6,257 nt of DNA from the IMG/VR virus record IMGVR_UViG_2645727970_000006; one strand, written 5' to 3'. Source of the DNA: a virus (taxonomy: Duplodnaviria; Heunggongvirae; Uroviricota; Caudoviricetes). The position numbers were made by a program. Positions 1 through 3,000 of the stretch are shown piece after piece (position 1 is the stretch's first letter; each line of letters starts with the position of its first letter).

Positions 1-3000
1 TTTATTACGGAACTGTTTTAAAGACCTGCCGGGATTTCGTTATTATCCTGGTGAATAACTTTATCGACCGGGTAACAGTTACCGGGAATTTTCTGTTCGG
101 TTGCTGCAGTCACACACTCCTGCATTGTCCTGTGAACACTGACTGCAATATCAACTGGCTCTCCGGAAACAAGAAAAACTGTCAGAACAAGTGCAAATGC
201 TGTATTCATTGCCAGCATCCTTTTTGTATCGGACGTAAACGGGCCAGCATTGAAAGAATGCATATTTTATTTAATAACTCCCGTTCGTGTTTTCTCTTGT
301 TAATGGCATCTTCAGTAAATACAGGGTTACTGATAGTGACACCAATTTCAAAACAACCTTCAGACGTATTAACGTTTGGTAATAACGTTTCCATTATCGC
401 GTCCTCAACAATGAATTTTGTGATGCGGTGCCTGGTGCCTCCAGGTGACGTTAACCAGTTAACAATTAACGCCGGATACAGAGAATCCACCCATAACACT
501 GTTTTTGGTTTTAACTGTTCCGCGTGCGCTCAGCCGCATTCACCACATCACAAAATTCACTTTAAAAAGGGCGGCAGAGCAGTCACGGAGTAAAACTGAT
601 ACCGCCAAACGTCACCAGAAAATTGATAACAGAGGGCGTTGCAGCGGGGTTGTCACTTAAGCGTATGGTCAACCTGACAACCCGGTGTCCGCAACGGGGG
701 AAGGAATAACCCCGCCATACTTACCGCCGCGCCATTTCGCGGATTGCCACAACCGGAAGCGCACGGTCGACAAAAATTTAACGACAGGCTATCTATGAAC
801 CAGCTACCTCGCCGTGCGCTTTCGCGTTATGGTCTGACTTTTCAGGGAAATATCCTTTCAGTAAACTGTCAGTGCCGGATGCTCACCCGTGTCCGGCGCA
901 AGCACTCCACCTCACCCGTGGAGAACTCCTTAATTACCAACCTTAGCTTCGTTGGTTAGCTATTAACGCGGGTATGTAATCATTCTGGCAATGGTTAATG
1001 CCGCTGCTTTTTCCAGATTGGTGATATCCTGCTCCAGAGAGGACAGATTTTCAGCCTGCTTAGCCCTGACTTCATTAGCCCATTTCAGATCCTGCGCTGC
1101 ATTAATTTTCTGGTGCATCCACTCATAAAGTTCATCATTGGTATAGTCTGGCGCGATGATGACGGGTTCTCGTTTCTGCATACTGATTCCTCGCGGTGCT
1201 GTTTCGCTTATCAGCCATTAGATTTTGCCGAACTGGAAAGCACCTGTTTAAATTCGTTGAAGCTGTGAGCTTCTTCGCCTTCGGCAAGGCCTTCGAAGTA
1301 TTCTTCGTAAGCCTTTTCCATGATTGTGTCGAAATCCATATCACCCACCTGAATTTCTTTCCAGCCAGCGACGCGCTCCAGATTCGGTTTTAAACGTTTT
1401 GCTTTTGGTATACGTCATTGCGGTGAACGTACCGTCCTGGTTGGGGAACACGCCACATACCAGAGATTCGCTGTTGCCAAGATCGATAGTATCCATGCTG
1501 ACCTCATTTCCCCTTAACGCCGGGGTAGCGGAACAAAAACCTGCTGCATAGTTATTAAAGTTGAACCCTGCCGTCATGTTCTTACGCCTCGGGCTGGCTA
1601 CTTAACCCCTGACCACTGCCGGGTAACTCGAAGTATTTCCCTGCGTTCTGTGGGGCGGGGTGGGTTGGTATGTTGTTAAGGTAACAAGAGTTACCTTTCG
1701 AGTCAATACAATGTTGCAAAAGGTACATTTGAGGGCATAAAAAACCCGCAATGAATGCGGGTTCTGACTCAGTCTAAGTATTGATGTATTTGTGAAACTT
1801 TACCTTTAATGGTGTAACCACCATTCAGTTCGATGGGTTTGTAAAGCGGATTCAGTGACAACAAATAGATGTTTGGTCCGTCAATCGCAACTTTTTTTAG
1901 TGTTACGTTTGGCGTTCCTTCCAATTGGATTAAGATTATTTTTCCCACCAGTTCTCTAATGTTACTTGAGCATGGTGTGATCAGCACGGTAGATCCGTCG
2001 GGGATGGTTGGGAGGCCGTTAGAGTTTGTCATCGCATCTCCCTCAACATGCAATAAAAAAGAGTTTTCAGCGGTTTTTGTCATGACATCAACCCAGTTAT
2101 TAATACCAGGAATCTTGGTTACTGGACAACTCATATCCCAATAACCAGCCTGTTCCCACGTTAAAACGGGCAACCGGGCGATGTTGTCACTAATGTAAGG
2201 GTACTGATTCAGACGCAGATCATCGGTTTTATCGTGACAGTCCTTTCCATAAAGAATCCATTCAGGAGATTTGGAAAGCAATTTTGACAGTAGATACAAA
2301 TTCTCACCGTCAGGTTTTGAAGAGCCATTTTCCCATTTTGTTACGGATACACGAGATATGCCGATTGCTTTCGCAACCTGCTGTTGGGTTAATCCAACGT
2401 CTTTTCGACGATTCCGAATACGTTCGCTGATAGTGTTTTTCATGTAACCAATGTTACTACCAAGTGATGTTGCTATGGTTGACATTGTTATGTAACTATT
2501 GTTACCCTTCTGCTCGAAATAACAGGAGAGTTTTATGTTCAAAGATGATGTTCTGCGCTATTTCAAAAAAAAGCGACTAGTAGCTGAGGCTCTTGGAATT
2601 TCACATGTGGCTGTTGTGCGGTGGAAAGCAGTTATTCCCAAACTTCGCGCAATGGAACTGGATGAAATTACTAACGGTGAATTGAAATACAACCCAGAAC
2701 TTTACAAGAAGCAGGATAGCACCTCGAACGAAGGAAAGAATGATTCATGAAAATCAAGCATGAACACATCCGCATGGCGATGAATGTCTGGGCGCATCCG
2801 GACGGCGAAAAAGTACCGGCTGCGAAAATTACCAAAGCGTATTTCGAGCTGGGAATGACGTTCCCGGAACTGTATGACGACAGCCATCCGGAAGCCCTGG
2901 CCCGTAATACCCAGAAAATTTTCCGTTGGCTGGATAAAGACACCCCTGATGCTGTTGAAAAAATGCAGGCTCTGTTACCGGCGATCGAAAAGGCGATGCC

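Follow-up and report, generated by a model that had tools for sequence, protein, structure and literature searches.

In phage lambda, a cI-type repressor with a helix-turn-helix (HTH) domain and a Peptidase_S24 (S24) domain is encoded between divergent early promoters, OL1 lies between the -35 and -10 elements of the leftward promoter PL and overlaps the -10, the right operator region (OR) is tripartite with ~24-bp spacing, and PL is the first element to the left of the immunity region. All of this holds for the locus described here, a predicted minus-strand promoter-operator (PL and OL1) at positions 1678-1706 of a 6257-bp window, the whole stretch of DNA analysed, which is virus record IMGVR_UViG_2645727970_000006. 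Lambda differs in other respects: its operators are 17 bp long and unrelated in sequence, with three strong sites at OL, its PL has nutL and N downstream, while the window has no N gene and a PL operon consisting of ydfABC-dicF-dicB, and its repressor has the catalytic Ser149 where that of the window has Ala. P22 resembles the window in the form of its operators, which are two contacted 5-bp half-sites around a 4-bp centre; the DNA-binding domain of its C2 repressor matches that of the window repressor and the window Cro belongs to the P22_Cro family, although the P22 half-site is TTAAG rather than GTAAC and the neighbouring genes are different.

A further described counterpart is dicBp of the Qin prophage, TTGACC-GATATG-TTAGTCATGGCTAA-TCT, in which, as at PL, 6 nt separate the -35 from a 14-bp palindrome of the 5-N4-5 type that supplies, with its final 3 bp, the first bases of the -10. 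Its place between ydfA and the repressor gene, at the head of ydfABC-dicF-dicB, is also that of PL. The Qin repressor DicA binds a TTAGT-N4-ACTAA operator in vivo, including the related site Oc (TTGTTAGTCATAACTAACAA), where a single base change abolishes binding (PMC3441716); deletion of dicA raises dicBp-lacZ expression 22-fold, dicBp was the sole promoter found for the ydfABC-dicF-dicB transcript, and Qin is induced through the Rem antirepressor (PMC10448788). The two systems also resemble each other in their proteins: DicA and the window repressor are 57% identical over the N-terminal 65 residues that form the DNA-binding domain, the only part that aligns, and the window Cro is 39% identical to Qin DicC. 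They differ in that DicA has 135 aa and no S24 domain, whereas the window repressor has a lambda-cI-like C-terminal domain, and in the operator, GTAAC-N4-GTTAC in place of TTAGT-N4-ACTAA. Qin also lacks most of the 175-nt leader present in the window. Because of the full cI-like C-terminal domain and the different operator, the window system is, judged from its sequence, a heteroimmune analogue of the Qin DicA system and not a member of it.

Read on the minus strand, positions 1706-1678 are TTGACTCGAAAGGTAACTCTTGTTACCTT, that is, TTGACT-CGAAAG-GTAACTCTTGTTAC-CTT (Table 1), in which a near-consensus -35 is separated by 17 bp from TACCTT, within the 17 ± 1 bp of a sigma-70 promoter. The last three bases of the OL1 palindrome are the first three of the -10 hexamer, and with its flanks (AAGGTAAC/GTTACCTT) its arms extend to 8 bp. 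OL1 therefore extends over the spacer, the extended -10 TG and half of the -10 itself, which makes occlusion the natural mechanism of repression. GTAAC-N4-GTTAC occurs exactly three times in 6257 bp (1681-1694, 2444-2457 and 2492-2505), each time in regulatory DNA on one or the other side of the repressor gene, and in none of 200 dinucleotide-preserving shuffles (0 expected); the composite TTGAC-N(7,8)-GTAAC-N4-GTTAC-CNT is found only at PL (1678-1706, minus strand) and at the rightward promoter PR (2479-2508, plus strand), again with 0 expected. Near-matches to the palindrome at 466, 2109, 5299 and 5857 were set aside, as they lie in coding regions and their number is not above chance.

An earlier note on this DNA had recognized a third perfect operator copy on the minus strand at PL and a shared TACCNT -10 built partly from the right half-site of the operator, and both are borne out, with TACCTT at PL and TACCCT at PR. 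It had also given the two promoters the same 7-nt distance between -35 and operator. The sequences of the two regions rule this out: the gap is 6 nt (CGAAAG) at PL and 7 nt (TTGTTAT) at PR, the composites measure 29 and 30 nt, and the -35/-10 distances are 17 and 18 bp, respectively. Its placing of the transcription start near 1670 agrees with the +1 predicted here at A1671, where a leader shared with heteroimmune prophages begins, and its view that the site switches on a dicB-type operon fits its position, directly after the intrinsic terminator of the repressor gene and ahead of the leader and ydfA-ydfB-ydfC-DicF-dicB.

It is highly likely from these features that 1678-1706 is PL with its main operator, OL1, and that a dimer bound from -23 to -10 would occlude the TG and the -10 and so silence the operon; promoter activity, start point, the identity of the bound protein and the occlusion mechanism are each predictions. 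Sigma-70 RNA polymerase would use TTGACT, the 17-bp spacer and the extended -10 TGtTACCTT to start at about A1671, and the transcript would comprise the 175-nt leader and ydfA-ydfB-ydfC-DicF-dicB, and then continue into the recombination genes further on. In the lysogenic state, the cI-type repressor encoded next to PL, which has a P22 C2/DicA-type helix-turn-helix (recognition helix SRVSVTKWENG), would occupy GTAAC-N4-GTTAC at OL1 as a dimer and block contacts to the TG and the -10, turning the operon off. The same repressor would bind both perfect OR copies, of which one covers the PR -10 and the other adjoins the start codon of the repressor gene, thereby shutting PR at OR1 and probably autoregulating at the ATG-abutting site, and Cro would be expected on the same sites. 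The region has what a lambdoid immunity region should have, namely an HTH and S24 repressor, a divergent cro, an operator repeated on both sides and immunity specificity of that operator. It is an ordinary lambdoid PL/OL1 for whose operator specificity no published description was found and whose layout is that of lambda, P22 and Qin.

Several points weigh against this assignment. The -10 hexamers of PL and PR each match TATAAT at three of six positions, below a threshold of at least 4/6, and a simple sigma-70 consensus scan of 900-2800 flags no promoter at all, neither PL nor PR; since the -10 is only 3/6, the activity of PL would have to come from the -35, the TGn element and the conserved -11A and -7T. 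Comparison gives the same picture for binding by the repressor and by Cro alone, because the two genes travel together. No repressor more than 42% identical was found among the 50,697 phage records of the collection, and a full-text search for publications describing a GTAAC/GTTAC operator returned none that was relevant. The weak PL -10 is offset by the TGn that precedes it and by the retained -11A and -7T, features that the TAC+CNT hexamers of PL and PR (TACCTT, TACCCT) share. A 3/6 hexamer that a consensus scan misses might also be expected of a relic, in which PL of a cryptic prophage has become essentially silent and the palindrome has been kept through recent common descent, and little can be read from conservation within E. 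coli, where the 702 copies show 98.6% identity or more. We nevertheless regard decay of this kind as improbable, given that the layout survives in relatives with fully diverged flanks and repressors 42-70% identical, and that its homologue in Qin, a prophage that really is cryptic, retains promoter activity and can be repressed (PMC10448788). In a 98.6%-identical E. coli variant, RM10740, 18 of 1294 positions differ; eight of these fall in the intergenic 1578-1768 and none in the -35, OL1, the -10, OR1 or OR3.

Relatives of the repressor recovered by protein search were 97, 88, 87, 70, 66 and 52% identical, with many more at 42-46%; their loci were fetched, and 21 from different genera were added by genome scan. 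The comparison set comprised 28 PR regions and 25 PL regions, the latter from loci with repressors 42-88% identical in more than 12 genera (Escherichia, Salmonella-type, Hamiltonella, Yersinia, Buttiauxella, Kluyvera, Edwardsiella, Erwinia, Kosakonia, Rahnella, Klebsiella and others). Ten aligned repressors, down to 44% identity, all have the same recognition helix, SRVSVTKWENG, and the layout found with it after the terminator of the repressor gene is TTGACn, 6 nt, GTAAC-N4-G(T/G)TAC and (A/C)TT. Of the 25 PL regions, 24 have the 6-nt gap, 23 keep TTGAC and all have a TAC+(A/C)TT -10, while the spacer bases and flanks are free to vary. At PR the gap is 7 nt in all nine loci with a clear TTGACA, and the one-base difference between PL and PR is thus conserved among close relatives. 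The 28 PR regions have one operator over a TACCTT-type -10, another abutting the repressor ATG, and a weaker one in the middle, 25 and 23 bp from its neighbours. A Salmonella relative (L008/L009, repressor 70% identical) lacks a PL operator in the 330 bp that follow its repressor gene; it retains OR1 and an OR3-like site, and carries an insert with a gene for a 204-aa secreted or lipoprotein-like product that has its own TTGACA promoter-like site.

Prophages with other repressors show where the immunity-specific DNA ends. Megablast homology to them stops at window 1672-1678, and in the aligned regions of Rac (K-12), CFT073, 20R2R and JCKP02 a common leader runs from CATACCA(A)CCCACCCCGCCCC on, that is, from about window 1672 downward, with a TTGAC-like -35 at the same column as that of PL. 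Each has a palindrome of its own between the -35 and the leader, which in Rac is TTAGGCATTACCTA and in CFT073 ATACCTATGGGTAT; that of JCKP02 is a long inverted repeat rich in A and T. As the leader is shared but the palindromes differ, the left edge of the immunity cassette lies at the PL -10/+1 and the operator is inside the cassette, as would be expected of a target of the cassette's repressor and Cro. Indeed, the operator co-varies with immunity type, being kept with the recognition helix and replaced in heteroimmune prophages. Rac illustrates the pattern, with a homologous leader (87%), TTGACA at the same column and the immunity-specific palindrome between -35 and -10, although its repressor, RacR, has no S24 domain, its operator is another and the genes downstream are ydaF and kilR. 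That the palindrome sits exactly where heteroimmune homology ends could also mean that it is a host-factor target, a recombination or module-junction sequence, or a chance inverted repeat. Such an origin is very hard to reconcile with three exact copies where none is expected, placed over the -10 of PL, over that of PR and at the repressor start, and with a sequence that switches with repressor type yet stays with the recognition helix, as the target of a host factor would not follow the immunity type; we give it hardly any credence.

The number of repressor dimers involved is a separate question. The earlier note had both early promoters repressed through occlusion of the -10 by a single dimer; by comparison, occlusion appears sound, but the single dimer is not supported, in view of the OL2 and multi-site OR of the family. 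In most relatives a second left operator, often perfect, lies 31-35 bp upstream of OL1, the spacing being 31-32 bp in the closest relatives and 35 in others, and the OL2 of L011 is the perfect GTAACAATAGTTAC. The family-wide OL2 and three-site OR argue for cooperative binding, and multi-site binding of this sort, as in lambda, would seem at least as likely as a single dimer. It is tempting to speculate that OL1 works with OL2 at 1713-1726, and maybe with OR some 800 bp away, through cooperative or looped oligomers as in lambda. The second left operator of L011 and of most relatives at 42-52% identity, the lambda-like 25- and 23-bp spacing of the OR sites and the lambda-cI-like C-terminal domain of the repressor all favour such an arrangement, whereas the OL2 position of the window has three mismatches and a spacing moved to 32 bp, which looks like decay, and its OR2 position has four. 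We offer the idea tentatively, with rather more doubt than belief.

At OR, the middle site of the window lies 25 bp from OR3 and 23 bp from OR1; at the same position most relatives have GTAAC-TGTT-GTTTG. The divergently transcribed cro adjoins the repressor gene. In nearly all relatives the OR3-position operator abuts the repressor start as GTTAC-ATG, which leaves no room for a Shine-Dalgarno sequence and suggests that the maintenance transcript of the repressor is leaderless, as for lambda cI. At the other end of the gene, the intrinsic terminator lies between the repressor gene and PL, and transcription of the gene should therefore end before PL is reached; hairpins of other sequence occupy the equivalent place in L002, L005, L011 and L019.

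The repressor has HTH_3 (E = 3.5e-17) and Peptidase_S24 (E = 1.8e-16) domains, matches lambda cI (PDB 3bdn) over its full length (phmmer E = 2e-14) and matches P22 C2 in its N-terminal domain (E about 1e-12); its C-terminal domain is fully lambda-cI-like. The RefSeq start at 2485, which would give 238 aa, is probably an over-extension, and 2443 was preferred: relatives of 219-221 aa begin at the aligned MK, L038 and L041 have in-frame stops within the extension, upstream of the MK start, and conservation there tracks operators rather than codons. The repressor lacks the catalytic Ser used in self-cleavage, as the equivalent of Ser149 is Ala (GDAMT, as against GNSMT in lambda cI; codon GCG at window 2033-2035, minus strand), while the Ala-Gly site (QAG) and the Lys (TLKKV) are retained. 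Ala is also found in P0001, P0002 and the Salmonella relative P0005, and Ser in P0003 and P0006-P0038; the codon is GCG in the window and L002, GCA in the Salmonella relative, and TCA or TCG in other relatives. This suggests that the repressor with Ala would be unable to cleave itself and not SOS-inducible. Neither the window nor 19 kb of the identical prophage in strain YDC107 contains a LexA box (CTGT-N8-ACAG) that might place an antirepressor under such control. It is an intriguing possibility, on which we are almost evenly divided with a slight lean toward doubt, that the change from Ser to Ala (T to G, arisen twice to judge from the GCG and GCA codons) has made the PL/PR switch immune to RecA-stimulated autocleavage, such that the operon could be turned on only by another route. 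If so, activation of ydfABC-dicF-dicB would depend on an antirepressor, on Cro-driven bistability as in Qin or on dilution of the repressor, and the locus would be a naturally 'locked' lambdoid switch that arose through a point mutation and not through loss of the C-terminal domain.

The window represents the early region of an E. coli prophage of the lambdoid type. The YDC107 chromosome is 100% identical over window 1500-2800, and 702 of 5426 complete E. coli genomes hold at least 80% of that segment at no less than 98.6% identity. PL therefore pinpoints where the dicF/dicB cell-division-inhibitor operon would be controlled in roughly one complete E. coli genome out of eight, and defines the predicted operator, GTAAC-N4-G(T/G)TAC, of a widespread and unstudied Enterobacterales repressor family, which should be useful for predicting prophage immunity groups and for designing reporter and induction experiments. 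Our understanding of lambdoid switches is unchanged, as the layout was already known from lambda, P22 and Qin.

Table 1. Coordinates of the features of the window, from left to right (- and +, strand).
Feature	Position	Strand	Details
DUF1482 gene	18-263	-	
Early-left operon ydfA-ydfB-ydfC-DicF-dicB	206-1496	-	Pfam, Rfam and RefSeq annotation of YDC107
dicB	206-394	-	Pfam DicB
DicF RNA	569-620	-	Rfam, 76.7 bits
ydfC	963-1181	-	RefSeq annotation of identical YDC107 region
ydfB	1211-1339	-	RefSeq annotation of identical YDC107 region
ydfA	1341-1496	-	Pfam DUF1391
PL leader	1497-1671	-	175 nt; about 87-98% identity with heteroimmune prophages, Rac 87%
Predicted PL transcription start	1671	-	A, 7 nt past the -10; from promoter geometry
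PL extended -10	1678-1686	-	TG (1686-1685)-T-TACCTT (1683-1678)
OL1 operator	1681-1694		GTAAC-TCTT-GTTAC, perfect 5-N4-5 palindrome; spans about -23 to -10 of PL
PL -35	1701-1706	-	TTGACT, 5/6 consensus positions
Possible degenerate OL2 (status uncertain)	1713-1726	-	GTACC-TTTT-GCAAC, 3 mismatches; 32 bp upstream of OL1
Intrinsic terminator	1741-1765	-	Hairpin and U run after the repressor stop codon; -15.1 kcal/mol, z = -3.78
cI-type repressor gene	1769-2443	-	HTH_3 and Peptidase_S24, 224 aa
OR3-position operator	2444-2457		GTAAC-CAAT-GTTAC; abuts repressor ATG (2441-2443)
Weak OR2-position site	2469-2482		GTTGC-TATG-GTTGA, 4 mismatches; overlaps PR -35
PR	2479-2508	+	-35 TTGACA (2479-2484), 7-nt gap, OR1 GTAAC-TATT-GTTAC (2492-2505), -10 TACCCT (2503-2508)
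cro-like gene	2535-2750	+	P22_Cro family (E = 2.9e-16); first gene of the PR transcript

The leader of the PL transcript has a C-rich, G-poor 5' part (ACCAACCCACCCCGCCCCACAGAAC). We considered whether it might be an HK022 put-like antiterminator or another known RNA and found no support for this, as an Rfam search gave no match even at E <= 5 and the leader folds no better than its shuffles (z = +1.26); it may act in cis, as a Rho-loading (rut) site or otherwise. A core motif, AAGTAGCC..CCGAGGCGTAnGAA, at window 1570-1606 (minus strand) recurs in L018 (~3400-3440) and L019 (~3290-3320), and is retained in distant relatives whose PL leader extends into a nut site (boxA/boxB) and then gene N.

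According to the annotation of the identical region in YDC107, the prophage adjoins potC/potD; genes for integrase, excisionase and exonuclease lie on the left side, and those for replication and the Q antiterminator on the right. Within the window, cro is followed rightward by genes for YdaT (a CII analogue), an O-like protein and a DnaC-like protein. At the far right, window ~6160-6257 matches an IS1 terminus at 91-93% identity, and E. coli records in their thousands annotate this sequence as IS1A transposase; the exact IS1 junction is absent from complete E. coli genomes, from which it follows that, rightward of the replication genes, the source of the window is not the same as YDC107. Two minor observations concern motifs elsewhere in the window. 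A palindrome with OL1-type half-sites around a 1-bp centre, GGTAAC-A-GTTACC, lies at 71-83 inside the DUF1482 gene, where its position is not regulatory, and is probably no operator. Finally, an exact YdaT-box, ATGATT-N6-AATCAA, is found on the plus strand at 2740-2757, at the right edge of the immunity cassette and with the ydaT ATG (2747) inside its spacer; the motif is the one footprinted for Rac YdaT (PMC11879457).

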